In this document: positions 3,780-49,828 of the stretch, piece after piece | How positions within the stretch are numbered: position 1 is the stretch's first letter | Layout of the letters: every line of letters begins with the position of its first letter | Assembly (NCBI GenBank): GCA_032718475.1 | Contig: JAUCBJ010000889.1 | Location: 1-51,296 of the forward strand | Reading direction: 5' to 3' | DNA length: 51,296 nt | DNA from: Nemertoderma westbladi | Lineage: Eukaryota; Animalia; Xenacoelomorpha | The notes under the pieces: model-generated | Databases searched by the model: none | Seen by the model: only the letters and a program-made list of their open reading frames with translations | Told to the model about the DNA's origin: nothing | Position numbers and translations under genes: made by a program

Positions 3780-4193
3780 CTGCTGACCATAATAGTATTA
3801 ATTACCATTAATACGTATTTACTGCATCTCATTTTAAATTTATACGCATATATTTAATCTCATTTTTACGACATCAGAGACCGACCCTTTTATTAATACG
3901 TATATATATATTTCATCTTATTTTAATACAAATATTTCTATCTAATTTCATATAACATCCAGTCTTCTGACCCTTTTAACTTCTTCGTTTAATCTCATAA
4001 TTAGCACGGCCTTTTTGAGACCAATTACATACAGTAATAATTTTAACTCGATGTATTTTAATGTACCTTAAATAATTATTAACTCATATTTTAAACTAAG
4101 TAATGTATGAATGTGTATTAACTCATATTTTAAACTATGTAATGTATCTCTTATGGGGGAAACCCCATCACCATATAATACTATAGTTAAATT

Positions 4194-24421: not shown

Positions 24422-26683
24422 TGTAAGGGTCCAGTAGTATACCGCTTACCAGATCCTAGTAACGATGTATCTTACTATGAGACTCTAGTAATGTATACGG
24501 GCTCGTACAGTATCTGACAACAAATCCCAGTCCAGGATATCTAAACAAACAGATACAGTACACAAACGACTACTGGCGAGGAACAGAGCCTTGTATCTAT
24601 TCTATGTACGTGAGCGGGTCTAATGCCTACGTACTAGACAGAAGGATACCTGTCCTCTAACCGGTGAGGCAGATGTACAGTTACAGTAACAGACCAAACT
24701 CACGGGAAAACAATCCCCGCGCAGCGAATCCTAACTATCACTGACAGTCCTAAATACAGTAACTTGCCGCGGTGTGATTTATATGGTTTATATACGAGCT
24801 AGTGGGTTAACAGACCTAGCGTAACAACACTGACAGTCCTAAATCAGTCGAAAAGGGGTCGTGCCTAAATGTAACAATAACTGATCCCCCTGTACGAAAT
24901 CAGTCTAAAGGGTCAGGCCTAAATGTAACAATACCGTTGTCCAGACAAACAACAGTTTAATAACGAAAGTGAAATACTCCTTATCGCCGCAACTAAATCA
25001 GATCCTAATTTTACAAATACAGACAATTTCCACCTAAAGTAATGTATAGTACGCTATAGCTAGTAGAACTTTAAGGGCGATATGTTTTAGGGCGTGTGTG
25101 TGTGGGTGTGTTACAAATAAAACAATTTCGTGTAATTCCTTTTACTAGGTTTTAGTGATTTTCTGACTAAGTGATACCGTGCGCTAGCTACTAAAATAAA
25201 CTAGTCGCGTTTGTAGAACTTTATACTCACGAATGACGTCAAAGCTCTCTCCTTCCTATCCACAACCCAATGGGCAACCACAGTGTTAGTAACTACACCC
25301 GTGATCGGCACTAATACCAGATTCTGGTTGTAAGATAAGAATAGGGGTTAATCGCTACCGTACGTTAGCTGATCTGGTATACTAATTTAATTCTAGAACT
25401 TTGTTGCTGCGGTAGTTAGCAGCAATACCTATCAGTACGTGGCAAGGCGCGGTAGGATATTAATAAACCTCCCTAGGCCAAGCAGTGTGCCGGTAGCAGA
25501 AATACTCCTTGCCTGATCAAATAGCTAACTCCAGACAGGGGGGGGGGGGGGGGGGGGTACTAATGTACGTTCTACAAAGCGAACCGGTACCAAACAGTCA
25601 GTGCTACGAATCACTAAATTATGGAACATATGCTGTCCGTACCTAATATGTACTCGCGTACTGACGAATGGCAATAGTTCGCACCTGTAGGAAGTACAGG
25701 GATTCGTAGGACTGACAAAGGGGGGGTTGTCTGGATATAATTATTTGATCCTAAATTTGCGGCGTCCAGTACGGTGTCACGCTTACCCTGATCTATAGGT
25801 CTTACGGCGGGCAAGGGCGTCGAACAAAGTCTTACCTTTCTCACAAAGCGGGCGCTGCATAGCAAGTTGAGCATTTCGAAGGGGCAAAGGGGGTGCGCGG
25901 TCAATCCAATGTGGGCGCTAGCGTGTTGTGGACATCCCTTCCCTGCGTTGCTTACGGCCTAACAATCTAGGCTGCCATCTCCCTGGTGTTCGGCTGTCCC
26001 GAAGTCGGACCAAAAGAAAACATGTCAGGAAATTGCAGTATATTTACAGTTTTACAAAAGGATTTATCAAATAAAGTTTCAACAAGAAACCGAATTAACT
26101 AATTTTACAAGAATAAACTATAATAATATCAGGTATTAACGTGATAAGGTGGAGTGATAACCGAAGGCAAAACGGCCTTTTTATACTAGAAATTGCACAT
26201 GGAAACTAAACAGAATTTTCCACAGCTTCACCATTGAGCAATGAAGTGCTTCGTGCTCTATGATTGGCCCAGCTCATCGTTCAACGCAGTCCGGCCCTTA
26301 CACTAATCTGGGACATGGAATCCTAACAGAATTTTCCACTGCCGCACATTTGAGCAATAAGATAATTTATGCCCTATGATTGGCCTGGCTCATCATTCGC
26401 TACGCTGTACGCTTCTCATTGGCCTACCAATTAGCACCACACGAAAATAAATGGCCCCAAAATACAAATTTCCCGACTGGGATTCGAACTCGTAACCTAC
26501 GTAATGTAACCAACGCCTTAACCATCTGACCACTACGCCACGAGAGTACCTAAGGGTTTTATGTGTACAAATATGAATAGGCATATTACATTACTGTAAC
26601 TTAATCAAAATACGTCGGATTTTCAAAGTTTTTACGTTAAAGTTAAACTACTAAATGCTATCTTATAGTGAAATAATTCATCA
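24422..26683 (-). repeat. 3' LTR (2262 bp)
   Basis: + strand TGTAAGGG...TTCATCA; direct repeat of 38272-40540. Confidence 0.97.
26470..26540 (-). promoter_or_regulatory. tRNA-derived (SINE-head-like) A/B-box module in U3 of the 3' LTR
   Basis: - strand GTGGTCAGATGGTTAAGGCG (A box/D arm) ... GAGTTCGAATCCC (B box). Anticodon and acceptor stems are not intact. Confidence 0.6.
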
Positions 26684-27138
26684 CCGCTCCATGAAAACAG
26701 TAAGTAAGACTGTTTTCACCAATCGAAATATAAAATATTTACAAACTATTTCTAAATTTACTGGTAGGGCCTAAAATATAAAATATAATCACTATCTAAT
26801 TATTGCATACTTAATATTGCAGATACGGCGTAAATACAATCGATCGTACATACAAATACAAATTTACGAATTAACTTCAGTGCCTAAAATACAAAAAAAG
26901 GCTTTCGGTTATCAAGGTAAGCAAATTAAACAAATCAGAACAAATAAATCAAACAAATCGAACAAATAAATCAAACTCTTTCGATAAATCTTTATATATT
27001 GTAAATATACATAATAAACCTTCACCAAATTAAATCAGTTCAAATATAATATAAACATAATGCGCTAATAACTTTCAATAGTGTCCTCCTGACGATCTAA
27101 TAGTTCGTCCTGCTGGTCTGGATATCTTCTCCTGAGCA

Positions 27139-27537
27139 CTAATTGCTAACGGTAGGCTCGCAAGCCTTCCTTTCCATATCTCGTCCTTCCAAACCCAACG
27201 TCCGATATAAATACCCAAATATAATATCCAAATATAAAATATCCAATATAAATATCCAATATAACATCCAAATATAATATCTGAATATAATATCCTTTCT
27301 TCTCGCTTTCCTATTCCTTGGCCGACCGGGCTCGTCCACGTCCTCTAATACGATTGGGTGGTGGTCGAGGTCGAACTGGGCTCGGACTTCGGCGTCGAGT
27401 TGTCGGTGGTTCCAAAACGCTAGGAAAGGGGACGACGGGAGATGAAACGACCGCCTTCTTGGTAACGCAGACTTTGGTGGTTTGGGCAACGCGCTAATAT
27501 CAGCTCGGGGTTCTCGCAAACGTCGCTGGCGTCGCAT
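27139..27537 (-). CDS. Putative accessory ORF B, Arg-rich (132 aa; C-terminus runs into AT-rich short repeats)
   Basis: MRRQRRLREPR, PRRRSF and GRPRNRKARRK clusters; lies in a GC-richer island within an AT-rich 3' region. No homology recognised. Confidence 0.35.
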   Translation of the reverse strand: MRRQRRLREPRADISALPKPPKSALPRRRSFHLPSSPFLAFWNHRQLDAEVRAQFDLDHHPIVLEDVDEPGRPRNRKARRKDIIFRYYIWMLYWIFILDILYLDIIFGYLYRTLGLEGRDMERKACEPTVSN

Positions 27538-27671
27538 AACGCATCGTAGGGGTACAACGCTTTGAACTCCGCGCGTAACTCCTCCGCTGTTTTGTTATAA
27601 GCGTCCAATCGCTGTCGCGTGACGTTTGGATCCGCCTTGGATTTAGCAAGCTTGGCTGTACTCCTAGCCAT
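27420..27671 (-). CDS. Putative accessory ORF A (83 aa, MARSTAKLAK...; C-x5-C-x9-C-x2-H)
   Basis: ATG at 27671 in strong context (AGTATGG), ~100 nt downstream of a branchpoint/polypyrimidine/AG acceptor (27795-27767). No homology recognised. Confidence 0.4.
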   Translation of the reverse strand: MARSTAKLAKSKADPNVTRQRLDAYNKTAEELRAEFKALYPYDALCDASDVCENPELILARCPNHQSLRYQEGGRFISRRPLS

Positions 27672-28466
27672 ACTCTCCACTCCAAACAGGTTAAAGTTTT
27701 GGCCCCATATCGGTTGAACGGCGCCTGGTGCTCCTATTCCTGCGTGGATCTTTGATAATAGTGTTTCTACTAGAGGAAGCACAAACAGAGGTTAGATGTG
27801 AGGTGACTTAGAGTTTGTCGGCTTTTGGCTCAACTCTGCTCTAAACCCCAACCCATTTTGCCTAATGACTTCGGGTTCGCGTGATTTCGCACTGGCTCCT
27901 AATCCAAAAAATTGTGCCGATAAAAAACGAATTCCGGGTAAACTAGCCGCGAGTCTAAAATACTCACCTTTTAATTTCCCATACTACGTTTCCCAAGAAA
28001 ATAAGTCAGTCGAGAATTAATTGGTCAAAATAATAGTAGACACGACTACGCAGAATAAGACCGATTTTCTTTTCAAAAAAAAAAAATTTATTTATCGGTA
28101 GGCTCGCAAGCCTTCCATCCGCTCTTGTCCTCCCCAATTTTAATTTTATCTAGCTGTATTCTAGAATTTGCTTTCACTGGAGAATCGTTTTTCTTAAATT
28201 TAAATCCAACTAAATGGATTTGTCTAATAATTTTGAAAATTGTCTCACTTGTGGGTTCCAAGTGGAATTCCATTCCTACTGTACACACAATCCCGCTCCT
28301 ATGTGATACATAAGGGTACTACCCTCCATGTTCACGTATAAAGACAATGGAATTCCACCGCTGTCTCTATCTACAGTGAAGAGGATTACAAATGCACGTA
28401 CAGTAATACAAATACAAATAACTAAAATACAGTAGGTCTATGTGGCGGCCAACAAAGGTCCCACAT

Positions 28467-30494
28467 CTATTTACTAATATTGGGTGGAGATTTGTAGTCT
28501 CCCGTCTCGTTTCTAGTCTCCTCAAGGAGTACGAGACGTTGTACAGGTCTATCTACGGTACGTCCGTCGATAGTCCGTACAGTAACTGTTCTCACTATAC
28601 CAGATGTAGGGTGCGTGGTCAAAATGACTCCAGTCAGCCAAAACCGTCTTCTCAGATTAGCTTCGGCCAATAAAACATGGTCACCACGCCTTAAACACCG
28701 GGTATTTAGATACCAGGAAGTTCTGGTTGAAATAGAGGGCAAATAATATTTCTGCCATATTTCCCAGAATTTATTTGCAAGCAATTGAGTGATTTTCCAA
28801 GCCTTGTTGCCGTATCCGTCACTATCAACGGGTACCGAAATGGGCAACAATGTCGTCGGCGCCTGCATAAGCAGGTGCGCTGGTGTCAAGGCAAACTGTA
28901 CGTCGTTATTGTCTGGGATCAAAGCGATCGGTCTGGTATTTAAGATTGCTTCGATTTCTATTAGTAACGTCGTCAGTTGGTCGTCTGTCAAGATGTGTTG
29001 CGTCGGTACGACTTTAGCCATAGCAGTCTTTATTGAGCCAATCAGCCTTTCCCAAACGCCGCCTCTCCACGGACTGTCTGGAGTATTGAAAAACCAAACA
29101 ATACGGTGAGGACGTAGTTCCTCGGAAATCTGGTTTTGGTCCAATTTTCTCAAAGCTCTGGTTATCTCGTTCCGTGCACCCACAAAGTTTGTCCCTTGGT
29201 CGCAGTATATGGATTTGACCAATCCACGTCTAGCGATAAATCGCCGTAAGGCTAGGATAAAGGCATTGGTGGACAAGTCTGTCACTCGCTCTATATGGAC
29301 AGCTCTGCTGGCCATGCAGGTGAAGATCAATCCCCAACGTTTTACCTGTACCCTTCCGCGTTTCGCGATTATGGGTCCAAAACAGTCTATCCCTGTCTCA
29401 GTGAAAGGGGGTCTAAACGCCTGTAATCTTGCTAGTGGTAGTTCACTCATTTCTTGGTGTCCTATCCTCGCGTGCACCTTCTTACAAATAATACAGTTCC
29501 GTGTTACTGAACTCAGTGCCTTACTAGGTCTAATCAGTACAAACCTTGAGCGTAAGTGTGATAGACAGTGGTGTCTACCTACGTGTTTGAGTTGTACATG
29601 TGCGTCCAGTATCATAGCGCGCTGTAACTCATGGTGTTGCGGTATGATGATAGGATACCTAAAGTCAAGTGCAAAGTCGATGTTTTGGAGTCTGGACTTG
29701 TGACAAAGTAAGCCCCGGTAAATAATCGGACTCCAACTCAAAATCGGTGAAGACTTAATCTGTTTACCTTGTTTGATCGCTGTGAACTCTCGTGCGAAAT
29801 ATCGCAATTGATAATGTCGAATGATATCAACTTCACAGTGGCCAATTTCCTTTAAGGTAAGTCTTCTAGGAAAGTCGCGTTTGCCTCTGGCATATTGTCT
29901 CAATCGTTTGAGCCATGCTAACTTGCGGCATGCGTCAGTCCATGATCTAGTTAGGTTCACTATCCTGTCTACGTAAGTGTTAGTGACGTCATCGGGTAAG
30001 GTGTAGTCGTAGTGTGGATACTTGTCTGGACTTGGTAGGCCCACGGGCCTTCCGGTAGGTTTGTCTGAGTCCCCAAGTACGTCAATCTCTACTGTCTTAC
30101 CTTCGCCGTCCGCACCTAATGTGTCGACTGGCAGTAATGGTTTCAACTCTACAGTGTCAGTGTGTTCCTGTGAGCCTGTAAGCTTCCTAACCTTAGTCAC
30201 CACTTTACCTGTAGGTAAGTCAAGTACCTTCTTCGAGCGGAGTGTAATCCCTGTGGCCACCACTCTGTCGTCCAAAGAAGTCAAATTTGGTACGTCTCTA
30301 AATGTCCGCTCCAATGGGTCTTCTAATGGAGTGTCTAGTAGACAGTCTGGTGAAGCGTCTGGTGAACAGTCTGGTGAGACGTCTGGTGAGACATAGCGCG
30401 GAACATCCGGCAAAATGTCCTGTCGTCGGTCCCAAAGTCTGTCTAGCGTAACTTCTGTCAGAAAGTCTGGTTCAAAGTCTGGTGGACAGTCGGT
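28467..30494 (-). CDS. pol: Pol C-terminal part: linker + integrase (HHCC, DDE, BEL C-terminal domain)
   Basis: H-VQLK-H...CIIC, TGIDCFGP, YCDQGTNF, GGVWERL, LNTRPI, GDHVLL..W..G.I..G.VR.V.VRT..RPVQRL. In frame with the upstream ORF across one TAG (30495-30497). Confidence 0.93.
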   Translation of the reverse strand, partial: TDCPPDFEPDFLTEVTLDRLWDRRQDILPDVPRYVSPDVSPDCSPDASPDCLLDTPLEDPLERTFRDVPNLTSLDDRVVATGITLRSKKVLDLPTGKVVTKVRKLTGSQEHTDTVELKPLLPVDTLGADGEGKTVEIDVLGDSDKPTGRPVGLPSPDKYPHYDYTLPDDVTNTYVDRIVNLTRSWTDACRKLAWLKRLRQYARGKRDFPRRLTLKEIGHCEVDIIRHYQLRYFAREFTAIKQGKQIKSSPILSWSPIIYRGLLCHKSRLQNIDFALDFRYPIIIPQHHELQRAMILDAHVQLKHVGRHHCLSHLRSRFVLIRPSKALSSVTRNCIICKKVHARIGHQEMSELPLARLQAFRPPFTETGIDCFGPIIAKRGRVQVKRWGLIFTCMASRAVHIERVTDLSTNAFILALRRFIARRGLVKSIYCDQGTNFVGARNEITRALRKLDQNQISEELRPHRIVWFFNTPDSPWRGGVWERLIGSIKTAMAKVVPTQHILTDDQLTTLLIEIEAILNTRPIALIPDNNDVQFALTPAHLLMQAPTTLLPISVPVDSDGYGNKAWKITQLLANKFWEIWQKYYLPSISTRTSWYLNTRCLRRGDHVLLAEANLRRRFWLTGVILTTHPTSGIVRTVTVRTIDGRTVDRPVQRLVLLEETRNETGDYKSPPNISK

Positions 30495-30745
30495 CTAGAT
30501 GTCTGGTGAACAGTCTGGTGAGACGTCCGGTAGACATTCTGTCGAGAGTTCCATCAAACAATCTGGCGAACAATCCGGAGAACAATCTGGTGTCTCTTCT
30601 GGTGAATAGTCTGGCGAGTAATCTGGTGAACAATCCGGCGAAACGTCTGGTGAAATCTCCCGCGGAACATCCGGCGAAGGATTCATACAAGCGTCTGGTC
30701 GAGTGTCTGGCGAGACGTCTGGCGTAATGTCAGGTCTGGCGTCCA
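30330..30745 (-). repeat. Degenerate 12-bp tandem repeat encoding (S/T)PD-x within the RNase H-integrase linker
   Basis: SPDVSPDCSPDYSPDYSPEETPDCSPDCSPD...; + strand tctggtga/tctggcga recurs with 12-nt period. Confidence 0.85.
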
Positions 30746-32159
30746 GGTCATCAGATTTCGTCCGTCCTTTTTTCCTTTTGACCTTGGCGTTGGCTTTCGC
30801 TTTAGACTTGACAACCTTGTCGAGTTTTATCTCGGCACCCTCTGGTATGGTGTTGGTTGTCGCGTCCAATAACGGTGGCCATTCGTCTGATGGTCGCTGT
30901 AGGAAATCGGGTCCTCTAAACCAAAAGGATTTATTGTCCGGTTTACAAAAGTCGAGTGGTTGCATCCCCCGTGACGCGATGTCAGCTGGGTTCAGCTTCC
31001 CTGGACAGTGACGCCAATCTTGTTTGAGCGACCGGTCTAGTATTTCAGCCCGTCTGTTGGCTACGAAAGTCTTGAACTCAAATGTTTCGTTGTTTATGTA
31101 CCAAAGTACCAACGTCGCATCCGTCCAATATGTGACCTTCAAGTTAGCCTCCAGCTCGCGTTGAACTAGACTGACAATATCGGTGGATATCGTCCCGGCT
31201 TGCAGCTCCCCACGAGGTACAGTCATATACTTCAATGGCATTGTTCTAGCCCTTGAAGTAACGAGAGATACATCGTAGCTGTCCGATGTCACTTGTCGTC
31301 TAAGGTATAAAGTAACCCCCAATCCATCCTTGCTAGCGTCACTAAAGCTGTGAAGCTCTAAATCAGCAGGAAAGGTGGTTTGCAAAGGAAAGTATACCCT
31401 TGGTATGGTATAGTCTTGTAGGAACGTCAGTTGGGCTTCCCAGTCCCTCCATCGCTCAGCTAACTTTTCTGGGATGGGATCGTCCCATTCCAGTCCGGCT
31501 TGCCAAATGCTGCGGAGTATGATCCTGGCATGTAGGATCACTGGACTAATGAAACACAACGGGTCATACAATCGACTCATGGTCGATAAGCAAGTCCTCT
31601 TAGTGAGAGGTCTAGTCTGGTCGTTGGACCTTACACGTACCCTAAAATTGTCGGTGTTAGGGTCCCAACTAAGTCCTAGTACTTTGGTCGTCGGCAGAGG
31701 TTCTAGGTCTAAGTCCAAGTCACCTCCACTGCGATCCATCGGGTCAAATGAGTTCACCAGTTCGGGTTCGTTGGAAGCGAACTTCGTCAGGTGAAATCCG
31801 CCCTCAGCGAGACAATCCTGGAGTTGGTGTGCTACGGTTGTAGCGCGCTCCAAGGTGTCACAACTCTTGAGGCCGTCATCCACGTAGAAGTCTCGTTCCA
31901 CGGTCCGAACTACTTCTGGGTCAAATTGGTCTCGTCTGTCCAATGCTGTCTGCTTCAATGCGTACATGGTGCAGTTGGGGCTGTCCCTGGCTCCGAATAC
32001 TCTTACCTGCATTTGGTAAGTTTCTGGCGGAAGTTGTAAGTTTCCGTCCGGATACCAAAGAAACCTCAAACTGTCCCTGTCCCGCTCCAAAGCCTTAACC
32101 TGGTGAAACATGGCCTCTACGTCACAGGTGAAAGCCACTTTGCGTTGTCTAAAACGCAT
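30495..32159 (-). CDS. pol: Pol middle part: reverse transcriptase + RNase H + SPD-repeat linker
   Basis: RFRQ..VAFTCDVEAMFHQV, VFGARDSP, FYVDD, LGLSWD, LYDPL, LHSFSDAS, PRGEL, YWTDA, NPADIASRG. Confidence 0.95.
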   Translation of the reverse strand: MRFRQRKVAFTCDVEAMFHQVKALERDRDSLRFLWYPDGNLQLPPETYQMQVRVFGARDSPNCTMYALKQTALDRRDQFDPEVVRTVERDFYVDDGLKSCDTLERATTVAHQLQDCLAEGGFHLTKFASNEPELVNSFDPMDRSGGDLDLDLEPLPTTKVLGLSWDPNTDNFRVRVRSNDQTRPLTKRTCLSTMSRLYDPLCFISPVILHARIILRSIWQAGLEWDDPIPEKLAERWRDWEAQLTFLQDYTIPRVYFPLQTTFPADLELHSFSDASKDGLGVTLYLRRQVTSDSYDVSLVTSRARTMPLKYMTVPRGELQAGTISTDIVSLVQRELEANLKVTYWTDATLVLWYINNETFEFKTFVANRRAEILDRSLKQDWRHCPGKLNPADIASRGMQPLDFCKPDNKSFWFRGPDFLQRPSDEWPPLLDATTNTIPEGAEIKLDKVVKSKAKANAKVKRKKGRTKSDDLDARPDITPDVSPDTRPDACMNPSPDVPREISPDVSPDCSPDYSPDYSPEETPDCSPDCSPDCLMELSTECLPDVSPDCSPDI

Positions 32160-35100
32160 TAGACTCCCATGAGGTAATTATTCATATTCGGCCCGTCCAT
32201 CAGTTCGCTGTTCATAGACATCCCTTGGTAAAGTGCAGCGCAGTCGTTGACTACACGCACCTTGCCAGGTTTGTCCGGGTGTCGAACAAAATGATGTGGC
32301 AGGTAATATGTCTGGTCTGTGGTTACCTCAGGATTTAACATCCTAATGGCGTATCCCTTTTGGAGATACATCTGAAGTTGTGCATTGTATTGCATATGGG
32401 CCGTCTCGTCTCGCAACAATCGCTGCCTTATTGATTTGAGTCGCCTCAAAGCAAGCGGGTAATTGTTAACGAGCTTAGGTTGTCCATCGCGCCACAACAT
32501 ACCAACCTCATAGTGGCCATTCGCGGTCTGGCGAATGGTATCTCTCATAATATTTAATGACCGTTTTTCCTGTTCTGACATAGCGGTCTCGTAACTACCG
32601 GGTTCTGCTGAGTCCTGTTCCAACCATTGAATGGTCCGTTCAGTCAGCAGTCGGTCAAGCGCTGCTTGCACTGCGCCATGGTCCTCGTCCACGTCTTCGT
32701 CCGCTGCGGTGGCTAGTGTCAATGTGTCTGGTAGGCTTGCAAGCCTTCCGGTGTCACTAGTCGGCGTCGAATCGTCGTGCGGCGGTTTGACAACCTCTTG
32801 ATCTATCGGTAGGCTCGCAAGCCTTCCAAGATCAACGACCGGTGTCGAAGCCTGGTGGGTGGGGTCAATGACCTTCGGATTTTTCGGTAGGCTCGCAAGC
32901 CTTCCAAAATCCTCGTTCATCGAGTCATCCACAGCAACAACCCTCAGGTCTTCAGTAGTCAATACAACCTGGTCTACTGCAAGTAGTTGTAAGTCAGAGG
33001 TCCGTATGGTCGTGTCCAGATCGGTTACGTCAGTATCGGTGGCGTCTGCGTTAGTGACGCAAGTCTGTCGTAGTGCCGTCCGTACAATTGGACCACGGGA
33101 GTGTGAAGGAGAATTATCTATCGTGTTAGTCAATAAACTACACGTACTCAAAACGTCGTCCTCCTGGTCACTTACCTCTAGTGAACGTATTGGTGCTCTA
33201 GTATACCAACCTATGGGAGTTCTACATGCGTAGGGGTTGCCCGCTGTAATAACAGATGGGCGTGTCTCCCATACCTGATGTAAGTTAAACTGGTCTGTCC
33301 CAATTAACATCGCAATGGAACGATAATTGACAGGACATTCCGGTATTCCAAGGTGTCGGAAATACTTACGATCTTCCGGTGATTGCTCTGGCACAGGGCC
33401 GAGCAAGTTACTAAAGTCCTTCGTAGCTGCAAAGGTCAAATTTCTTACCGGAAGTAATGAGCGCTCCTCCTTGCTGTGTTCCGCTTTGGAAAGAAGAGTG
33501 TCTAAAGTTAGTTTTACTCTCGTCACAGGAATCGCTCTCTTACCATGCATGCTGCTTACAGTATACTGAGCAGTCTTACCTTGACTCAAGTCCGTAACTA
33601 CGTCGGCTACTTGTTCGTCGACATAGCTATGCGATGACGCAGAGTCTAAGATGGCGTATATACGCTTGCTCCCTCGGGTTCCGGTAATCTTTATAGGAAT
33701 CACGCTAAACCCTTTCAATTGGTTCTGTGTGAGGAGCGTTATCGATGGCTGTTCCTCACCTGCATGCACGTAGAAAGTGTCGTCTTCCTCCTCGTCCTCG
33801 TCCGATGATCCTGACTGATCCATACAGTCGGTATAAAAGGTACGGATCTCGCGCGGCGCACGCTCCTTATAAAGCGCGTCGCATCTAGCCGCTTTATCGG
33901 GATGCTCTCGTCGAAAGCGTCTGGTCGGAGTATGACTGGTTGTGTGAAGCAACGCGTCATGGTTACGTCCACACAGAGAACATGTATCATCGCTCGGGCA
34001 ATCCTTCCGGACGTGTCCTGGCTTCATACATCTCCAACAGGAATCTAGAGATCGGATTTGGAGTCTCCTTTCCTCGATCCCTAACTCTTTAAAAGCGCGA
34101 CATCCACGTAGTTTATGTCCGCTATGGTTTCTGCCGTTCCGCTCGCAGTATGAGCATCCCACAAAGTCCGCCGGCAACTGTTGTCGTGGCTGCGTGGTGC
34201 CGATAGGCGTCAGAACTTTAGAAGTCTCAGTAGGGGTGGCGTAAGTAACGGCTTTCGCGTTCGTCGGAAATGGTTTAGTCCGATTTGGCGCAGAAACAGT
34301 TATCCCTTCCGCCGCGATATGGTGATCGGTATAGTTCGATCGAGTCTCGATCACGGCCTCCCGTGAAATAAGTTGATAGACATCGGTGAGTTTTAATAAC
34401 CCTCCGGCCTCTTCGCGCTGGTACTCGATGCGTCGCCATTCTCTTCGTAGTCGATGATGAAGTCGACCGATTATTCGAATGAGAACCGTCGGTGCGTTAG
34501 CGTACTCGAGTTGTCCAATGGACCGTAAAGTCCCTATAGCGTTCTTTATTTCGTCCGCGAGTCGTAAAAGGTCGATCGGTCTCGAAATGTTGCCTCCTCT
34601 GCAGAGGTCTTCTATAATGGATTTAGCCATGGCGACATTACCTCCGTAAATCGAATATAAACGGTCGTACGCCAACTCAAAGGCATCGGGAACACCAATA
34701 AAGGTTTCCGCTAATCGTTTCGGCTCACCAGACAGGACTTGGAGCAAGTAGTTAAACTTCTCCGTCGAGGTGAAAGCACACTTAGCGATCTGGGACTCTA
34801 CGTAGTCTACCAGTGTGCGCCAGTGTTTCGCGTTGCCAGAGAACTTCGGCGGTTGCTGTGCCGGTAATCCGTGTCTAGCCGCGAATTTCGCAATCTCGCT
34901 AACCAAATCCAACTGTCCGCGTCCCTGTTCGGCGGCGTCGTCCAGTCGCTCCCTTCCGCGCGTTGTTCGTCGGTAGGAATTATTAACGGGATCTTCTTCT
35001 CGATGTGTCGGAGTCCGTCTAGTCTCCTGTTCTCTCCTCGGTGGTCGATGTTGTCTAGTTTGTTCCAACTCCACGCTGGTTCGTGATCGATCCGACGGTT

Positions 35101-37042
35101 GCGCTTCGAGTCGCTCTTCTATCTGAGCTAGTCGGTCCGCTACAGGTCGCATTATTTCGGCGAGTCTGTTGGTGCTGATCGCTTCCGCTGGTTGCAACGT
35201 GGGTTTCTGTTGGGGTGTTTCTCGAGGTGGATTGTCGATGTAGGGATTCGTCGATCTCTCCTCTCGTTTGTAATCCGCTGCCGCTGCCGCTCCAATACGG
35301 AATATTTCCCGTTCCGTCGACTCCGAGTCACTGGATGAATCGCTGTCGTCCGGATAAGGTGGTTGGCGGGTTCGCGTCCGGCGTATTATTCTTGGTCGAG
35401 TTCGTCGTGGTCTGGGATCTACGGCTCCTCGTTGTTCGGTAGGCTCGCAAGCCTTCCACGAAGTTGTAGGTCTCGTTAAACATTGGGTGAGAGGTCTAGT
35501 AAAAACATCGGAGTTAAGCTCTACTGTAGGTTTATAAATGACTGGGTTCGCGCAGCACGTCACAGGTTTAACTTGTAATGGTTTACTTACCTGTTTTACC
35601 GTCATAAACGCAGGTTCGTCTCTCTCTACAAGTAAACTACGGCTTACAGTTGGTGGACTACTTATCTTACCTGCGAGAATCGGCGATGAAGTCGCCCTAG
35701 GTTGCGGTATTTCCGTCACAACAAACCTGCTACCTTGCGTCGGGCGCACAGGCGTTATTTCCTTAGGTTTCGTAACAAAGACCGGTTTTGTCGGAGTCGT
35801 GGGTTTGAGCATAGGAATAACTTGGGGAAAACGTTTACAGTAATCCTCGACGAACTCCTCTCCTCGATCTATCGCTCCCACACTTCCTTCCTCGATTCGC
35901 TTCTGAATTCTGCGATATCGAGTCTCCATGCGATCCAGGGCAGACAAGTCGTGTCCAGCTCGAGACCTTATAGATCTATCTCTCGCGTCGAGTTCGAGGT
36001 CCTCTTGCGCGTTGGCCGCCTCGCGCGATCTGCGATTTAATTCGAACTGGAGCTGCATCTCTCTTTCGCGTCGATCTGCATCCTGTTGTTGTGCCGCTAA
36101 CTCCGCTTCCTGTATAGCTAATCGAGCGTTTATTTGTCGCGCCTCCAACTTGGCCCGAGCGTCGGATGCTGCCTTTTTCCGTGCTAACTCGTCAGCTGCC
36201 GCCTGTCGTGCTAACTCGTCAGCTGCCGCCTGTCGTGCTAACACGTCAGCTGCCGCCTGTCGTGCTAACTCGTCGGCTGCCGCTTCTCGCGCTAAGTCCT
36301 CCTCCAGTCTCCGCATCTCTGATGCTTCGAACTCAGCCTGCGCTTGAAGTTTCGCAAGTTTCGCTACGTCTTCTCTACGCTGTCTTTCTCCTTCCATCGC
36401 AATCTGCGCCAATTGTCGTTGAGTTTCTTCCTCAGCGACTTGTTGTCGGCGTGCGACCTCCTGTTGTTGTCGAATAATTCCAGACGCTGTTCTACTAACG
36501 TCGCCAACGTCGCCAACGTCGCTCCGTACGCTAACGAACGATCTATCCAGTGGTGGAATTTGGTAGGCTCGCGAGCCTTCCGTAGATAGAACTTCCGTCA
36601 TCCCTCTCGGTACAACTTCCGGTTCTTCGATCGGTACTCCGCATCTACGAAGAAAATTGGTGAGCGTCTCCAACCTCCCGTCCAGGCAGTAGAGTTCTTC
36701 TTCCTCTTCGGGTTGTAACAAGGCGTCCGAAACTGACTCACCTAGCAGTTGGTCGAACTGCTCCTGTTGAGCCAATCTTATCACCGACTTAAACTGGATA
36801 AGGCTTTCTCTCGCACTTACCAACTTGTCTATTATCTTTACCTGAGTAAAGTTATCGCCACGCAACTCTGCAAGTTCGTGTAAACCTTTAAGTTTATCTA
36901 CGGAGGCATGTACCCTACTTTCTATCCTTACCTGTAAGGTGTAGAACTCATATCTCGACATCGGGGCGGTTAACTCGCGTAAAACGCGAAAACCTTCTCC
37001 GAGGTTCCGAGTAATCTGTACTATACATATATATATATACAT
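32159..37042 (-). CDS. gag-pol: Gag - aspartic protease - RT N-terminus; start codon uncertain; frameshifted relative to the rest of pol
   Basis: Coiled-coil N-terminus with ~4 ELARQAAAD repeats, PPKFSGN capsid motif, BEL triple knuckle (CSYC..H..C, CWRC..H..C, CSLC..H..H), protease AILDSAS...MLIGTD, RT start YYLPHHFV..KPGKVRVV.DC..MNSELMDGP. Confidence 0.93.
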   Translation of the reverse strand: MYIYICIVQITRNLGEGFRVLRELTAPMSRYEFYTLQVRIESRVHASVDKLKGLHELAELRGDNFTQVKIIDKLVSARESLIQFKSVIRLAQQEQFDQLLGESVSDALLQPEEEEELYCLDGRLETLTNFLRRCGVPIEEPEVVPRGMTEVLSTEGSRAYQIPPLDRSFVSVRSDVGDVGDVSRTASGIIRQQQEVARRQQVAEEETQRQLAQIAMEGERQRREDVAKLAKLQAQAEFEASEMRRLEEDLAREAAADELARQAAADVLARQAAADELARQAAADELARKKAASDARAKLEARQINARLAIQEAELAAQQQDADRREREMQLQFELNRRSREAANAQEDLELDARDRSIRSRAGHDLSALDRMETRYRRIQKRIEEGSVGAIDRGEEFVEDYCKRFPQVIPMLKPTTPTKPVFVTKPKEITPVRPTQGSRFVVTEIPQPRATSSPILAGKISSPPTVSRSLLVERDEPAFMTVKQVSKPLQVKPVTCCANPVIYKPTVELNSDVFTRPLTQCLTRPTTSWKACEPTEQRGAVDPRPRRTRPRIIRRTRTRQPPYPDDSDSSSDSESTEREIFRIGAAAAADYKREERSTNPYIDNPPRETPQQKPTLQPAEAISTNRLAEIMRPVADRLAQIEERLEAQPSDRSRTSVELEQTRQHRPPRREQETRRTPTHREEDPVNNSYRRTTRGRERLDDAAEQGRGQLDLVSEIAKFAARHGLPAQQPPKFSGNAKHWRTLVDYVESQIAKCAFTSTEKFNYLLQVLSGEPKRLAETFIGVPDAFELAYDRLYSIYGGNVAMAKSIIEDLCRGGNISRPIDLLRLADEIKNAIGTLRSIGQLEYANAPTVLIRIIGRLHHRLRREWRRIEYQREEAGGLLKLTDVYQLISREAVIETRSNYTDHHIAAEGITVSAPNRTKPFPTNAKAVTYATPTETSKVLTPIGTTQPRQQLPADFVGCSYCERNGRNHSGHKLRGCRAFKELGIEERRLQIRSLDSCWRCMKPGHVRKDCPSDDTCSLCGRNHDALLHTTSHTPTRRFRREHPDKAARCDALYKERAPREIRTFYTDCMDQSGSSDEDEEEDDTFYVHAGEEQPSITLLTQNQLKGFSVIPIKITGTRGSKRIYAILDSASSHSYVDEQVADVVTDLSQGKTAQYTVSSMHGKRAIPVTRVKLTLDTLLSKAEHSKEERSLLPVRNLTFAATKDFSNLLGPVPEQSPEDRKYFRHLGIPECPVNYRSIAMLIGTDQFNLHQVWETRPSVITAGNPYACRTPIGWYTRAPIRSLEVSDQEDDVLSTCSLLTNTIDNSPSHSRGPIVRTALRQTCVTNADATDTDVTDLDTTIRTSDLQLLAVDQVVLTTEDLRVVAVDDSMNEDFGRLASLPKNPKVIDPTHQASTPVVDLGRLASLPIDQEVVKPPHDDSTPTSDTGRLASLPDTLTLATAADEDVDEDHGAVQAALDRLLTERTIQWLEQDSAEPGSYETAMSEQEKRSLNIMRDTIRQTANGHYEVGMLWRDGQPKLVNNYPLALRRLKSIRQRLLRDETAHMQYNAQLQMYLQKGYAIRMLNPEVTTDQTYYLPHHFVRHPDKPGKVRVVNDCAALYQGMSMNSELMDGPNMNNYLMGV

Positions 37043-37043
37043 A

Positions 37044-37343
37044 CTATATATATATGTACTGTACTGTATCTATACTCCTAATAACGTTCTCCTGGCTCCC
37101 AGTCGAACTTACCATGTCCGGTTCCCGCGATCTAGTCTGCGGGACGGTAAGGAAATCTTCGATTCTGCCGTCGCCACGCGTTGCGGTTTCCGGTATTTCC
37201 GTTCGGGGTACCGGCGACGCAAGCGGTGTGACATCGGTGGAATCTCGGGTTCTCCTTCTCGGTTCGTCTACTGTCGATCTGTCCGGGTCGCACGAGTCAT
37301 AGTCGGTAGGTGGGTATCTCGTCGAATGGGGTGTGTCACTCAT
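37044..37343 (-). CDS. 99-aa ORF upstream of gag; possibly the true Gag N-terminus cut off by a TA-rich insertion
   Basis: Ends ..DTVQ-YIYI*, while gag resumes IVQITRN. GTACAG is repeated on both sides of the (TA)n patch, and deleting 43 nt fuses the frames. Confidence 0.4.
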   Translation of the reverse strand: MSDTPHSTRYPPTDYDSCDPDRSTVDEPRRRTRDSTDVTPLASPVPRTEIPETATRGDGRIEDFLTVPQTRSREPDMVSSTGSQENVIRSIDTVQYIYI

Positions 37344-40008
37344 GTCTTATTATATACGTCAAGTACGGGTAATAAAATGTCAAATGTCTGAATGTTGAAG
37401 TGTCAAACTTACCTAACCGGTACAAATAAATCAACAAGTCAGAATGTCGAAATGTCAAAATGTCGAAATGTACAAATGTCAAACTTACCTTGATATATAT
37501 ATATATCATATATATACCCTAACCGGTACAAATAAACTAACAAAGTATATAATAAAATAAGTAGTAATCTAGCCTACCGGCTAAATTTGTACGAATAAAT
37601 GAGATAACGGTATACGTTAACAAAATGTAGATCAACAAGTATAAACAATAGGCCAAACAGCAACGTCTAACGGGAAAATAAGTACCAACAACACTACTAA
37701 TAGACAGTGAAACCCACAAATTTTGAGTACTACTGTGCTTTCTTAAGTTTGAACGACGCGAGTCGTAAAACTTACGTTCCTTTGATCTTCCAGTCGTACA
37801 AATTCCCAAATACAAACCGGACGTGGGTCTTTCCGTTTTTCGGCGGCGCGGACGAATTTATTGTCTCCCAAACTTTGCGAAAAGCGGTCTAATCCTCGAA
37901 GCGGTCCAGAAATGAGTCCTTGAGTCCTGAAAAGGTCGAAGGTGAGAGTTTTACTTCTACGCTTACGAAAAATCTTCCTAGGTACCGATACAAATTGGTC
38001 TTTAAACCCTATGTACCTTTTCAAGTACCGAAAGTAACACCGCACACACACGGCGTAAAACAAAGTGCTACAAACTAACTGTTAGCTAGTCAAATATTAA
38101 ATACGAAAGTACTAGCTACCCTAAAAGCCTACTGAAGCAGGGGACGTTCTAAATTACTAAATTTACTAACCTTAGTTTTAAATATCTCCTACTTTCAATA
38201 GCTAACAATCGAAATAATACTATACGCTACGGCGGAAATACTATATACTAATTTATATAAATACTTCCTACTGTAAGGGTCCAGTAGTATACCGCTTACC
38301 AGATCCTAGTAACGATGTATCTTACTATGAGACTCTAGTAATGTATACGGGCTCGTACAGTATCTGACAACAAATCCCAGTCCAGGATATCTAAACAAAC
38401 AGATACAGTACACAAACGACTACTGGCGAGGAACAGAGCCTTGTATCTATTCTATGTACGTGAGCGGGTCTAATGCCTACGTACTAGACAGAAGGATACC
38501 TGTCCTCTAACCGGTGAGGCAGATGTACAGTTACAGTAACAGACCAAACTCACGGGAAAACAATCCCCGCGCAGCGAATCCTAACTATCACTGACAGTCC
38601 TAAATACAGTAACTTGCCGCGGTGTGATTTATATGGTTTATATACGAGCTAGTGGGTTAACAGACCTAGCGTAACAACACTGACAGTCCTAAATCAGTCG
38701 AAAAGGGGTCGTGCCTAAATGTAACAATAACTGATCCCCCTGTACGAAATCAGTCTAAAGGGTCAGGCCTAAATGTAACAATACCGTTGTCCAGACAAAC
38801 AACAGTTTAATAACGAAAGTGAAATACTCCTTATCGCCGCAACTAAATCAGATCCTAATTTTACAAATACAGACAATTTCCACCTAAAGTAATGTATAGT
38901 ACGCTATAGCTAGTAGAACTTTAAGGGCGATATGTTTTAGGGCGTGTGTGTGTGGGTGTGTTACAAATAAAACAATTTCGTGTAATTCCTTTTACTAGGT
39001 TTTAGTGATTTTCTGACTAAGTGATACCGTGCGCTAGCTACTAAAATAAACTAGTCGCGTTTGTAGAACTTTATACTCACGAATGACGTCAAAGCTCTCT
39101 CCTTCCTATCCACAACCCAATGGGCAACCACAGTGTTAGTAACTACACCCGTGATCGGCACTAATACCAGATTCTGGTTGTAAGATAAGAATAGGGGTTA
39201 ATCGCTACCGTACGTTAGCTGATCTGGTATACTAATTTAATTCTAGAACTTTGTTGCTGCGGTAGTTAGCAGCAATACCTATCAGTACGTGGCAAGGCGC
39301 GGTAGGATATTAATAAACCTCCCTAGGCCAAGCAGTGTGCCGGTAGCAGAAATACTCCTTGCCTGATCAAATAGCTAACTCCAGACAGGGGGGGGGGGGG
39401 GGGGTACTAATGTACGTTCTACAAAGCGAACCGGTACCAAACAGTCAGTGCTACGAATCACTAAATTATGGAACATATGCTGTCCGTACCTAATATGTAC
39501 TCGCGTACTGACGAATGGCAATAGTTCGCACCTGTAGGAAGTACAGGTTAACCCAGGGATTCGTAGGACTGACAAAGGGGGGGTTGTCTGGATATAATTA
39601 TTTGATCCTAAATTTGCGGCGTCCAGTACGGTGTCACGCTTACCCTGATCTATAGGTCTTACGGCGGGCAAGGGCGTCGAACAAAGTCTTACCTTTCTCA
39701 CAAAGCGGGCGCTGCATAGCAAGTTGAGCATTTCGAAGGGGCAAAGGGGGTGCGCGGTCAATCCAATGTGGGCGCTAGCGTGTTGTGGACATCCCTTCCC
39801 TGCGTTGCTTACGGCCTAACGATCTAGGCTGCCATCTCCCTGGTGTTCGGCTGTCCCGAAGTCGGACCAAAAGAAAACATGTCAGGAAATTGCAGTATAT
39901 TTACAGTTTTACAAAAGGATTTATCAAATAAAGTTTCAACAAGAAACCGAATTAACTAATTTTACAAGAATAAACTATAATAATATCAGGTATTAACGTG
40001 ATAAGGTG

Positions 40009-40042
40009 GAGTGATAACCGAAGGCAAAACGGCCTTTTTATA
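40009..40042 (-). promoter_or_regulatory. Pol II core promoter of the 5' LTR: TATA box + initiator
   Basis: - strand TATAAAAA at 40042-40035 lies exactly 30 nt upstream of the A (40012) in TCACTC (Inr-like). Several CCAAT boxes lie upstream. Same arrangement at 26185/26155. Confidence 0.65.
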
Positions 40043-40326
40043 CTAGAAATTGCACATGGAAACTAAACAGAATTTTCCACAGCTTCACCATTGAGCAATG
40101 AAGTGCTTCGTGCTCTATGATTGGCCCAGCTCATCGTTCAACGCAGTCCGGCCCTTACACTAATCTGGGACATGGAATCCTAACAGAATTTTCCACTGCC
40201 TCACATTTGAGCAATAAGATAATTTATGCCCTATGATTGGCCTGGCTCATCATTCGCTACGCTGTACGCTTCTCATTGGCCTACCAATTAGCACCACACG
40301 AAAATAAATGGCCCCAAAGTACAAAT

Positions 40327-40397
40327 TTCCCGACTGGGATTCGAACTCGTAACCTACGTAATGTAACCAACGCCTTAACCATCTGACCACTACGCCA
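40327..40397 (-). promoter_or_regulatory. tRNA-derived A/B-box module in U3 of the 5' LTR
   Basis: Same sequence as 26470-26540. Confidence 0.6.
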
Positions 40398-40540
40398 CGA
40401 GAGTACCTAAGGGTTTTATGTGTACAAATATGAATAGGCATATTACATTACTGTAACTTAATCAAAATACGTCGGATTTTCAAAAGTTTTTACGTTAAAG
40501 TTAAACTACAAATGCTATCTTATAGTGAAATAATTCATCA

Positions 40541-43500
40541 CACAGATCATCCTGTACTTTCCACTCCGACTCCCACACCCTCCACAGATCATCCTGTACT
40601 TCCCACTCCGTCTCCCACACCCTCCACAGATCCTCCTGTACTTTCCACTCCGTCTCCCACGCCGTCCACAGATCCTTCTGTTCTTCCAACACCGTCTCTC
40701 GCACCCTCCACAGATCCTCCTGTACTTCCCACTCCGTCTCCCACACCTTCCACAGATCCTCCTGTACTTCCCACTGAGTCTCCCATACACTCCACAGATC
40801 CTCCTGTACTTCCCACTCCGTCTCCCACACCTTCCACATATCCTCTTGTACTTCCCACTCCGTCTCCAACACCCTCTACAGATCATCCTGTACTTCCCAC
40901 TCTGTCTCTCACACCTTTCACAGATCCCCCCCATACCCCCCACTCCGTCTCCTACACCTTCCACAGAGCCCCCCATACTTCCCACTTCGCCTCCCACACC
41001 CTCCACAGATCCTCATGTACTTCCCACTCCGTCTCCCACACCATCCACAGATCCTCCTGTACTTCACACTCCGTCTCCTACACCCTCCACAGATCCTCCT
41101 GTATTTCCAACTCCGTCTCCCACACCCTCCACGGATCCCCACATACCTCCCACTCCGTCTCCTACACCCTCCACAGATCCCCCCATACTTCCCACTTCGA
41201 ATCAAACACCATCCACAGATCCTCATGTACTTCCCACTCCGTCTCCCACACCGTCCACAGATCCTCCTGTACTTCCCACACCCTCCACAGATCCCCCCAT
41301 ACCTCCCACACCGTCTCCCACACCCTCCACAGATCCTCCCGTACTTCCAACACCGTCTCTCACACCATCCACAGATCCTCCTGTACTTTCCAATCCCTCT
41401 CCCACACCCTACACAGATCCCCACATACCTCCCACTCCGTCTCCTACACCCTACACAGATCCCCCCATACTTCCCACTTCGCCTCCCACACCATCCACAG
41501 ATCCTCCTGTACTTCCCACTCCGTCTCCCACACCGTCCACAGATCCTCCTGTACTTCCCACTCCGTCTCTCACACCATCCACAGATCCTCCTGTACTTCC
41601 TAGTCCAGCTCCCACACCCTCCACAGATCCCCCTGTACTTCCCACTTTGCCTCCCACACCCTCCACAGATCCTCCTGTACTTCCCAATCCGTCTCCCACA
41701 CCCTCCACAGATCCCCCCATACTTCCCACTCCGTCTCCCACACCCTCCACACCGCAGATCACCCCATACCTCCCATTCGTCTCCTCCACCCTCCACAGAT
41801 CCCCCCATACTTCCCACTCCGCCTCCTACACCCTCCACAGATCCTCTTGTACTTCCCACTCCGTCTCCCACACCCTCCACACCACAAATCACCCTATACA
41901 TCCCAATCCGTCTCCCACACCCTCCACAGATCCTCCTGTACTTCCCAATCCGTCTCCCACACCCTCCACAGATCCTCCTGTACTTTCCACTCCGTCTCCC
42001 ACACCGTCCACGGATCCTCCTGTACTTCCCACTCCGACTCCCACACCCTCCACAGATCCTCCTGTACTTCCCACTCCGTCTCCCACACCCTCCACAAATC
42101 CTCCCGTACTTCCAACACTGTCTTTCACACCCTCCACAGATCCTCCTGTACTTCCCACTCCGTCTCCTACACCCTCCTGTACTTCCAACACCGTCTCTCA
42201 CACCCTCCACAGATCCCCCATACTTCCCACTCCGCCTCCCACACCCTCCACAAATCCTCCTGTACGTCCCACTCCGTTTCCCACACCGTCCACAGATCCT
42301 CCTGTACTTCGCACTCCGTCTCCCACACCCGCCACAGATCCCCCCATACATCCCACTCCGTCTCCCACACCCGCCACTGATCCCCCAATACCTCCCACTC
42401 CGTCTCCCACACCCTCCACAGATCCCCCATACTTCCCACTCCGCCTACCACACCCTCTACAGATCCTCCTGTACTTCCCACTAAGTCTCCCACACCGTCC
42501 ACAGATCCTCCTGTACTTCCCACTCCGTCTCCACACACCCGCCACAGATCCCCCCATACCTCCCACTCCATCTCTCACACCCTCCACAGATCCCCGCATA
42601 CGTCCCACTCCGTCTCCTACACCCTCCACAGATCCCCCATACCTCCCTCTCCGTCTCCTACACCCTCTACAGATCCCCCCATACCTCCCACTCCGTCTCG
42701 TTCACCATCCACAGATCCCCCCCATCCCCCCACTCCGCCTCCCACACCCTCCAAACATCCTCATGTACTTCCCACTCCGTCTCCCACACCATCCACAGAT
42801 CATTCTGTACTTTCCACTCCGACTCCCACACCCTCCACAGATCATCATGTACTTCCCACTCCGTCTCCCACACCCTCCACAGATCCTCCTGTACTTTCCA
42901 CTCCGTCTCCCACGCCGTCCACAGATCCTCCTGTTCTTCCAACACCGTCTCTCGCACCCTCCACAGATCCTCCTGTACTTCCCACTCCGTCTCCCACACT
43001 TTCCACAGATCATCCTGTACTTCCCACTGAGTCTCCCATACCCTCCACAGATCCTCCTGTACTTCCCACTCTGTCTCCCACACCTTCCACATATCCTCTT
43101 GTACTTCCCACTCCGTCTCCAACACCCTCTACAGATCATCCTGTACTTCCCACTCTTTCTCCCACACCTTCCACAGATCCCCCCATACCCCCCACTCCGT
43201 CTCCTACACCTTCCACAGAGCCCCGCATACTTCCCACTTCGCCTCCCACACCCTCCACAGATCCTCCTGTACTTCCCACTCCGTCTCCCACACCGTCCAC
43301 AGATCCTCCTGTACTTCCCACTCCGTCTCTCACACCATCCACAGATCCTCCTGTACTTCCCAGTCCGTCTCCCACACCCTCCACAGATCCCCCTGTACTT
43401 CCCACTTTGCCTCCCACACCCTCCACAGATCCTCCTGTACATCCCAATCCGTCTCCCACACCCTCCACAGATCCCCCCATACTTCCCACTCCGTCTCCCA

Positions 43501-47669: not shown

Positions 47670-48281
47670 TTAACATGGAGCTACGTAGAATTTTCTTTTT
47701 TGAATTTATAGACTTTTAACGTTTGCGATATCGCCCTCATTGCATCACGGCCATTCCTCATATTAGCCACAATGACATATTATTAGAAAGCTTGAGTTGT
47801 AAGGATTCCAAATATAAATATATTTTGAGTTTCGTTGAGAAACAGCTGAGATATAATACTGGCGTTCAAAGATTGTGATAAATTATCATTCGCTGGAGGT
47901 CATTTATTATAATTAATATAAACACTACATTCTAGAACGTGATATTATTTGTATCATGCCTATGAAATATCGTTTTATAAGAAAAATATTTATGTATGCA
48001 TAGCTACACATATACATAAATAACTGGTATATTATAATGAAAGATACTTCTTGCAATCTTAGAACGCCCATATCTCATTTGTTTCTCAACGAAATTTAGA
48101 CATTCATACATATTTGGAATCCTCACAATGCAAGCTTTCAAATATATAAAAAATAAATCACTATTGATGAGAAAATTGGCAGCGAAACGAAGGCAACAAT
48201 TTCGTAAAAGACACTTTTATAAAACGCTAACGTAAAAAATTTAAATGTAAAATTGAAAATTCCGGTTACATGGGGTCCTCT
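47670..48281. mobile_element. MITE-like element with long imperfect inverted repeats
   Basis: ~47780-47853 (gaaagcttgagttgtaaggattccaaatat..tttcgttgagaaacagctgagatat) is the reverse complement of ~48070-48143. Outer limits are approximate. Confidence 0.5.
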
Positions 48282-49297: not shown

Positions 49298-49828
49298 CCG
49301 ATGTAACAGGCTGAGATAACTCCCCGCCAAATATGACTCCCCAGTCTTTTCAGCCTAGGCTGAGAACACCCCCAGTTTTCTTCCAAGATTTCTTAATTAA
49401 CGGAAAGGAGCAGGTTACAGTGGCGGGCTTTTCTAACCAAAACAATAAACGATAACTCATTAACATAGGTAACAGTTTAATTTTTGCAATATACGAAATT
49501 AGCACAGGTACGGATATTAATTATAACTCAATTAGGGTAGTCATATCAGCCTAAGGGGAGTCATCTCATCCTAAGAGGAGTCATCTCAGCCTAAGGGGAG
49601 TCAACTCAGCCTAAGGGGAGTCATCTCAGCCTAAGGGGAGTCATATCAGCCTAAGGGGAGTGATATCAGCCTAAGGGGAGTCATATCAGCTTAAGGGGAG
49701 TCATCTCAGCCTAAGGGGAGTGTTCTAAGTCTAGACTATGATAACTGGGAGTGGAGAGTGTTATCAACCTAGGCTTAGACGACTGGGGAGTCATTTCAAG
49801 AGGGAGTTATCTCAGCCTTGTAAACCAG
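49298..49828. mobile_element. MITE with TIRs and an internal 20-bp tandem array
   Basis: aggctgagataactccc..atgactccccagtc (~49308-49347) is inverted at ~49781-49818; internal repeats resemble the TIR motif. Confidence 0.7.
49541..49720. repeat. 20-bp tandem repeat TCATCTCAGCCTAAGGGGAG x9
   Basis: Directly visible. Confidence 0.95.

Follow-up and report, generated by a model that had tools for sequence, protein, structure and literature searches.

The Rev response element (RRE) of human immunodeficiency virus type 1 (HIV-1) is one large structured region, whereas the locus described here carries eight near-identical, dispersed 20-mers. They lie in a BEL/Pao long terminal repeat (LTR) retrotransposon (40540 to 24422, minus strand, 16.1 kb) on contig JAUCBJ010000889.1 of Nemertoderma westbladi (assembly GCA_032718475.1), of which positions 1 to 51,296, the whole stretch analysed, are referred to as the window. 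In the Gypsy element Cer1 of C. elegans, the protein CERV is required for export of the unspliced genomic RNA and is produced from a spliced mRNA that joins Gag exons to a unique exon, the same layout that is predicted here (PMC10309623, in the part available, which names no RNA target for CERV); the two elements nevertheless belong to different superfamilies, and no protein similar to the accessory exon of the present one was found. The genomes of single-stranded RNA (ssRNA) viruses (MS2, picornaviruses) and the pregenome of hepatitis B virus carry packaging signals in the form of many short stem-loops with a shared motif, coding regions included (PMC6281560, available part). Multiple shared-motif stem-loops on the genomic strand are likewise found here, but the viral signals vary in sequence and affinity, whereas the present copies are few, near-identical and located in a retrotransposon. 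The VANC motifs of Arabidopsis VANDAL transposons resemble the hairpins in being family-specific, in one orientation, gained by tandem duplication and read by an element-encoded protein (here a candidate); they differ in belonging to a DNA transposon and in being 9-nt DNA motifs, mainly non-coding, as opposed to a 20-nt near-palindrome situated mostly in coding linkers (PMC5735166, available part). In domain d of the enterovirus oriL, loops are confined to YNMG/YNUG, a class that includes stable UNCG-type folds, with UGCG among the commonest, and are read by 3C/3CD (PMC5633025, available part); it serves replication as a single copy in an unrelated RNA virus, and the analogy is limited to the loop class. 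Finally, the SPRE of endogenous retroviruses is a sequence-defined RNA element that aids expression in LTR retroelements, but it consists of three distinct motifs in one mammalian element, not one repeated hairpin (PMC8579622, available part).

Systems of this kind are known from retroviruses, Cer1 and RNA viruses; what is new here is the form, a near-invariant 20-mer spread along a BEL/Pao polyprotein. In line with a preliminary description of this DNA, which knew of no such motif in these elements, no repeated RNA motif described for BEL/Pao was found in the open-access literature (subscription journals and Repbase lay outside the search), nor does the literal motif occur in any paper there; an archive of 7,861 BEL/Pao elements (PMC3118150) was outside this coverage and may bear on novelty. 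The available parts of PMC12440569 and PMC6238403 contain nothing on such motifs. Replication of the Belpaoviridae is described as poorly understood in the profile from the ICTV, the international committee for virus taxonomy (PMC8742986).

The hairpin has the 20-nt consensus GGAAGGC-YYGYRR-GCCTACC, and its eight copies share one orientation on the sense (minus) strand of the element; the coordinates and loop variants first reported for them were all recovered:

36562..36581, minus strand: hairpin copy 1, loop CGCG; lies 160 nt into the predicted large intron, within the lineage-specific N-terminal extension of Gag
35438..35457, minus strand: hairpin copy 2, loop TGCG; in the Gag N-terminal extension
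32886..32905, minus strand: hairpin copy 3, loop TGCG; in the linker between protease and reverse transcriptase (RT), as the first in a row of three tandem units of 78 nt
32808..32827, minus strand: hairpin copy 4, loop TGCG; second tandem unit
32730..32749, minus strand: hairpin copy 5, loop TGCA, nearly private to the present genomic copy; third tandem unit
30034..30053, minus strand: hairpin copy 6, C-G closing pair and loop CGTG; in the RNase H-integrase linker, the sole covarying copy
28097..28116, minus strand: hairpin copy 7, loop TGCG; in the non-coding DNA that separates the pol stop from the accessory exon
27151..27170, minus strand: hairpin copy 8, loop TGCG; beyond the stop of the accessory open reading frame (ORF), in the predicted 3' untranslated region, and also the end of a 151-codon stop-to-stop frame

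Copies 3-5 are 78-nt tandem duplicates, so only six placements are independent; outside this trio the spacing is 0.9-2.7 kb. A search of the window with GGAAGGCYNNNNRGCCTACC, allowing up to 2 mismatches, gave 16 matches, which are the eight copies read on both strands, compared with a mean of 0.04 matches (largest, 1) in 100 dinucleotide shuffles. The same search placed no copy in the LTRs or the rest of the window, confirming the earlier claim that the motif is restricted to the internal region. On the element's sense strand there are eight occurrences each of the 7-mers GGAAGGC and GCCTACC, all of them within the hairpin copies; neither occurs in the LTRs, and that strand holds no isolated half-site.

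Selection acts on the nucleotides of the hairpin, as the preliminary description had argued from the changing peptides. Over the eight copies 15 of 20 columns are invariant and all 14 outer bases are fixed, in every frame and in non-coding DNA, and agreement drops to 3-6 of 8 immediately outside the 20 nt. All three reading frames are used, in addition to two positions outside gag-pol, and the hairpin reads EGSRAYQ at offset 2, WKACEPT at offset 1, and GRLASLP (three times) and GRPVGLP at offset 0, peptides that agree with those first given; because all three offsets occur, every outer base falls at a third codon position in at least one copy, and all of them stay unchanged. In the tandem units, pairwise matches amount to 58/60 in the motif vs 62/174 (36%) in the decayed spacers (Fisher p 2e-18, the pairs not being independent), and copy 6 has changed four of its six central bases and none of its 14 outer ones. 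The coding copies stand only where the polyprotein tolerates them, in linkers lacking homologue alignment: all six fall in 50-aa bins where a mean of 0-4 of 240 homologues align. Such bins make up 37-39% of residues, which by simple arithmetic gives a probability of about 0.02 for four independent placements. The hairpin-motif peptides occur in none of the 240 homologous proteins, relatives that are too distant for testing positional conservation.

Contigs of public sequencing runs (X1, X3, X4 and X5), from which family variation was read, show a high-copy, variable element family in one organism, and the number of hairpin copies differs within it. A ninth site is polymorphic:

27238..27307, minus strand: AT-rich 13-mer repeats in the present copy; apparently an additional hairpin, flanked like copy 7, elsewhere in the family

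In X5, the joints from 27237 to 28094 and from 28124 back to 27308 have equal depth (305.2) and one contig each; X3 supports the former and X1 the latter, and we infer that they are the two edges of an extra hairpin with copy 7 flanks in some family members. A minor joint from 27459 to 36561 (one contig, 22 letters) would represent either a tenth site or a 9-kb deletion, and loose contig ends suggest that hairpins persist in diverged relatives whose flanks have changed. A derivative without the three tandem hairpins also exists, since an X1 contig of a related subfamily joins across 32120-33343. At position 32738 nearly all contig depth in X1, X3 and X4 has the other letter, which yields a TGCG loop (X5 has no cover there). 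Between 32680 and 32960 the family contigs contain 13 variable sites, one of which lies in a hairpin, where the present genomic copy is the odd one out. Depressed variation at the hairpins, proposed in the preliminary description as a check, was present as a weak depletion, with p 0.19 for at most 1 of 13 sites and 0.05 for 0 of 12 once the private site was removed, or 0.07 when one row, probably a mis-laid contig from copy 7, was removed as well; contigs of other copies also inflate depth over the motifs, a bias towards depletion. A further comparison with the public runs listed 40 of 1292 difference rows, none of them in a hairpin, where about 0.5 would be expected, and is hence uninformative.

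The hairpin probably acts as RNA; action as DNA is unlikely, and a neutral sequence is a slight prospect. Every copy is predicted to fold with GG/CC pairs, an A.A mismatch, a 5-bp stem and a 4-nt loop; in each of the eight 50-nt contexts this fold has the lowest predicted energy. RNA is mildly favoured because the fit of the loops to YNMG/YNUG is biased to the sense strand (7/8, compared with 2/8 on the antisense strand, in a test chosen after seeing the data), and the sole sense loop outside this class belongs to the copy whose loop letter is nearly private. In no copy has the A.A asymmetry been repaired, the half-site of a perfect palindrome, GCCTTCC, being absent from the sense strand of the element. 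The stem covariation claimed earlier stands as a single compensatory pair, in copy 6 (U-A in seven copies, C-G in one); the other six of seven pairs are invariant and the signal is not significant. Extended stems formed with the flanks, striking in three copies, were considered and rejected, cognate flanks exceeding swapped ones in 1 of 12 measures (p 0.012). Dimerisation through self-complementary loops, as also suggested in the preliminary description, is unlikely and was discarded as a trait of the family: UGCA is almost confined to the present copy, and CGCG occurs in one copy only. Its broader proposal of a dispersed protein-binding RNA element is the best reading here too, one that we infer while the DNA-palindrome alternative remains beside it.

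A candidate reader is provided by predicted splicing of the element, for which the coding parts are:

37113..37343, minus strand: predicted coding exon 1, with ATG, 77 codons and donor ATG/GTAAGT in phase 0, from sequence prediction
36742..37018, minus strand: predicted exon 2, common to Gag, with donor TAG/GTGAGT at 36741 in phase 1
27420..27769, minus strand: predicted accessory exon, with branch point CTAAC, an 84% pyrimidine tract and AG; requires phase 1; about 115 aa

Predicted exon 1 would join gag in frame at acceptor 37018. The intervening GT-AG intron would span 37019-37112 (94 nt, minus strand); unspliced RNA would meet a stop there and could start gag only at a later ATG. The acceptor at 27769 is the strongest found, and its phase agrees with the donor at 36741. 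Read by eye, there may also be a 16-nt micro-exon at 27968-27983 (minus strand), before a donor at 27967, by which phase 0 would become phase 1 before the accessory exon. At 27594-27139 lies an overlapping, arginine-rich frame that is out of reach from acceptor 27769 in the present copy. Among family members the accessory frame varies in its C-terminal part (27420-27513), where the bin has about half depth and loose ends stand at 27451 and 27513, and the preceding part is kept.

The accessory exon has no Atlas match and belongs to no Pfam family, and its three HMMER matches were rejected as tandem-repeat artefacts. In the HMMER and Pfam searches the accessory protein showed no homology to Rev, Rex, Rec or CERV and no similarity to VANC; the missing homology to the first four would lower the case that it is such a protein, not that it works like one. 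The Gag N-terminal extension had no homologue among 7995 shorter candidates, and its N-terminal 153 aa, modelled as helical with a predicted local distance difference test score (pLDDT) of 65.5, gave no Foldseek match at E ≤0.001 in the viral and Protein Data Bank (PDB) libraries. The hairpin and its candidate reader are thus both lineage-specific, given the absence of the peptides from the homologues and of detectable homologues for the accessory exon and the Gag N-terminus, and a family-specific hairpin suggests a family-specific reader. No second multi-copy locus was found in the metagenome, viral and prokaryotic collections scanned. Rfam covariance models gave no matches at E ≤1 over 24400-40600, and motif scans returned single, chance-level matches only (5 metagenome, 68 viral and 37 prokaryotic loci), none of the 110 having a second motif copy or a tblastn match to the ORFs of the element; the viral contigs searched for related loci yielded no relative.

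Our preferred explanation, which we hold at somewhat less than even confidence, is that the hairpins are a distributed response element for the predicted accessory protein. Extended to the whole system, and a little more tentatively, a BEL/Pao element may have independently evolved a switch of the complex-retrovirus style, in which a spliced Gag-accessory fusion reads 8-10 identical hairpins set in the linkers of the polyprotein, which the family keeps copying to further sites. The sense RNA of each copy would fold as predicted above and present a YNMG/YNUG-type tetraloop. Splicing from 36741 to 27769 would remove seven of the eight copies and yield a fusion of the Gag N-terminus with the accessory part, in a CERV-like layout. 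This protein would bind the hairpins and multimerise on full-length RNA, blocking splicing or recruiting export, and the bound hairpins would license the unspliced genomic RNA to leave the nucleus; with splice sites of this type, an element has to protect its full-length RNA and see it exported (PMC10309623, available part). Short duplications within the element during reverse transcription would supply new copies, which would persist only at sites that the polyprotein can accommodate. With an exact 20-nt element, sharp edges, natural variants and two orphan candidate readers, recognition by the element of its own RNA is testable with short synthetic RNAs, and a compact pair of hairpin and protein might also serve for tagging RNA.

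Several results weigh against this explanation. On the RNA side, z-scores in 50-nt contexts are weaker than -2 for 6/8 copies, several copies refold in longer contexts, and the isolated hairpin is equally stable on the sense and antisense strands. UNCG loops are most stable with a C-G closing pair, and 7/8 hairpins are closed by U-A. Cognate flanks pair no better than swapped ones in 11/12 measures, nor better than random flanks from the element. The covariation value observed in the hairpins is equalled by 64/500 shuffles, both changes in the covarying pair of copy 6 are transitions, and the depletion of family variation is weak (p 0.05-0.19). On the side of the reader, splicing, expression and export of the element are predictions from sequence; no splice joint stands among the contig joints listed for the public runs, of which X4 is guessed to be RNA. 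The phase match is weak, as 3/9 donors examined have phase 1, and the position of seven of the eight copies in the predicted intron is uninformative, as this intron spans 77% of the internal region, while copy 8 would remain in the spliced mRNA. The accessory exon contains no RNA-binding domain found by these searches and folds poorly (model pLDDT 42).

The hairpins could instead be dispersed packaging or assembly signals, with which the Gag knuckles or the 700-aa N-terminal extension would select and compact a long genomic RNA. This shares the RNA evidence, and would suit copies spread at intervals of 0.9-2.7 kb through an element of about twice the median length; for ssRNA viruses, packaging by multiple dispersed signals is established (PMC6281560, available part), and the Gag extension is an orphan too. 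However, the described signals vary around a short recognition motif (same source, available part), whereas 14 outer bases are fixed here, and the knuckles are conserved in BEL proteins whose sequences lack the motif peptides, leaving packaging by Gag unlikely. A reader from the host, that is, an export, localisation or stability protein acting on RNA sites like a constitutive transport element multiplied along the genome, is more doubtful than packaging: it draws on the same RNA evidence, and host-read export structures occur in simple retroviruses (PMC10309623, available part), but reuse of the hairpin by other elements would be predicted, and neither the 240 homologues nor Rfam gave any sign of it.

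A role in double-stranded DNA, as a site of 7-bp inverted half-sites and a 6-bp spacer for a dimeric protein (a VANC-like anti-silencing factor or a host transcription factor), has about the same low probability as packaging by Gag. All variation lies within the central 6 bp, as a spacer would permit; folding is strand-symmetric, with no consistent extra pairing from the flanks; and VANC motifs accumulate in one direction by tandem duplication within their own element family (PMC5735166, available part). These points are set against the same asymmetry in 8/8 copies, with GCCTTCC never on the sense strand, spacer ends that are complementary in 8/8 (one informative event only), the strand bias in loop class, the absence of copies from the LTR promoter, and the 9-nt length and mostly non-coding location of VANC motifs. 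The least probable reading, and an improbable one, is that the copies arose neutrally, from a hairpin whose own duplication it favours through RT template switching or gene conversion and which is merely tolerated. The family variant with an extra copy and copy 7 flanks shows recent copying, tolerated placement is expected of any insertion, and the depletion of variation is not significant; yet conservation ends sharply at exactly 20 nt, the motifs are intact between tandem spacers that retain 36% identity, copy 6 has changed none of its outer bases, and the sense strand has no isolated half-sites.

The assignment of the element to BEL/Pao in the preliminary description held, on the evidence of LTRs with TG...CA ends, a 5-bp target-site duplication, BEL-type domains in Gag and the order protease, RT, RNase H, integrase. 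The retrotransposon copy is young, and its parts are:

38272..40540, minus strand: 5' LTR, 2269 nt, TG...CA
24422..26683, minus strand: 3' LTR, 2262 nt, with 3 substitutions and 15 gap columns relative to the 5' LTR
40541..40545, minus strand: 5-bp target-site duplication CTGTG, second copy at 24417-24421
32159..37069, minus strand: gag-pol piece 1, with orphan N-terminal extension of about 700 aa, DUF1759, three Cys-His knuckles, protease (LDSA) and RT start
30495..32177, minus strand: gag-pol piece 2, with RT (YVDD), RNase H (Peptidase_A17) and SPD-repeat linker; in-frame stop at its end
28467..30494, minus strand: gag-pol piece 3, with linker and integrase (H2C2, catalytic motifs, DUF5641)

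The domains recognised as BEL-type were DUF1759, Peptidase_A17, Integrase_H2C2 and DUF5641, accompanied by the three knuckles and the LDSA, YVDD and integrase motifs. Two lesions interrupt gag-pol in the present copy, a frameshift within RT (near 32160-32177) and a stop (30495-30497). The homologue search returned 699 homologues, the best being 47% identical (RT/RNase H), and the lineage is therefore poorly sampled; a search with integrase reached 41-42%. Belpaoviridae typically have LTRs of 0.2-1.2 kb and genomes of 4.2-10 kb (PMC8742986), a typical range and not a strict criterion, which the element exceeds (LTR 2.27 kb, total 16.1 kb); it is within the BEL/Pao maxima of 2,427 (LTR) and 22,762 (length) in supplement S9 of PMC3118150 (available part), near the top of the range and at about twice the median length. 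Tandem repeats of 12 nt (SPD-type) and 27 nt have expanded the polyprotein linkers at 30333-30722 and 36180-36295.

In Belpaoviridae an 18-nt primer-binding site for a host tRNA directly follows the 5' LTR (PMC8742986). No TGG start is found at this position in the element; the first 10 nt (38262-38271, minus strand) are the exact complement of the LTR stretch 39534-39543 (3' LTR equivalent 25687-25696), a complement present in 15/5000 shuffled LTRs in a post hoc count, and this suggests self-priming. The same LTR stretch also resembles the pyrimidine tract of a splice acceptor. Near each LTR start (about 40330-40405 and 26470-26550, minus strand) a tRNA-like segment with A-box- and B-box-like words was seen by eye; ARAGORN did not call these segments, and the one tRNA that it did call, tRNA-Val (26942-27035), is situated in AT-rich DNA and probably a false call.

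On both sides of the element (9512-24421 and 40541 to about 44100) stands a 42-bp tandem array, about 18 kb in all, which the element interrupts. The array has an extreme skew of C over G and stop-free frames of up to 4147 codons, rich in Pro, Thr and Ser, and may be a mucin-like exon or a satellite. Elsewhere in the window, a broken RT fragment with DUF6451 at 4111-5560 (plus strand) probably derives from a non-LTR element, and long inverted repeats at 6405-6495, 47781-48144 and 49333-49794 are possibly elements resembling miniature inverted-repeat transposable elements (MITEs).

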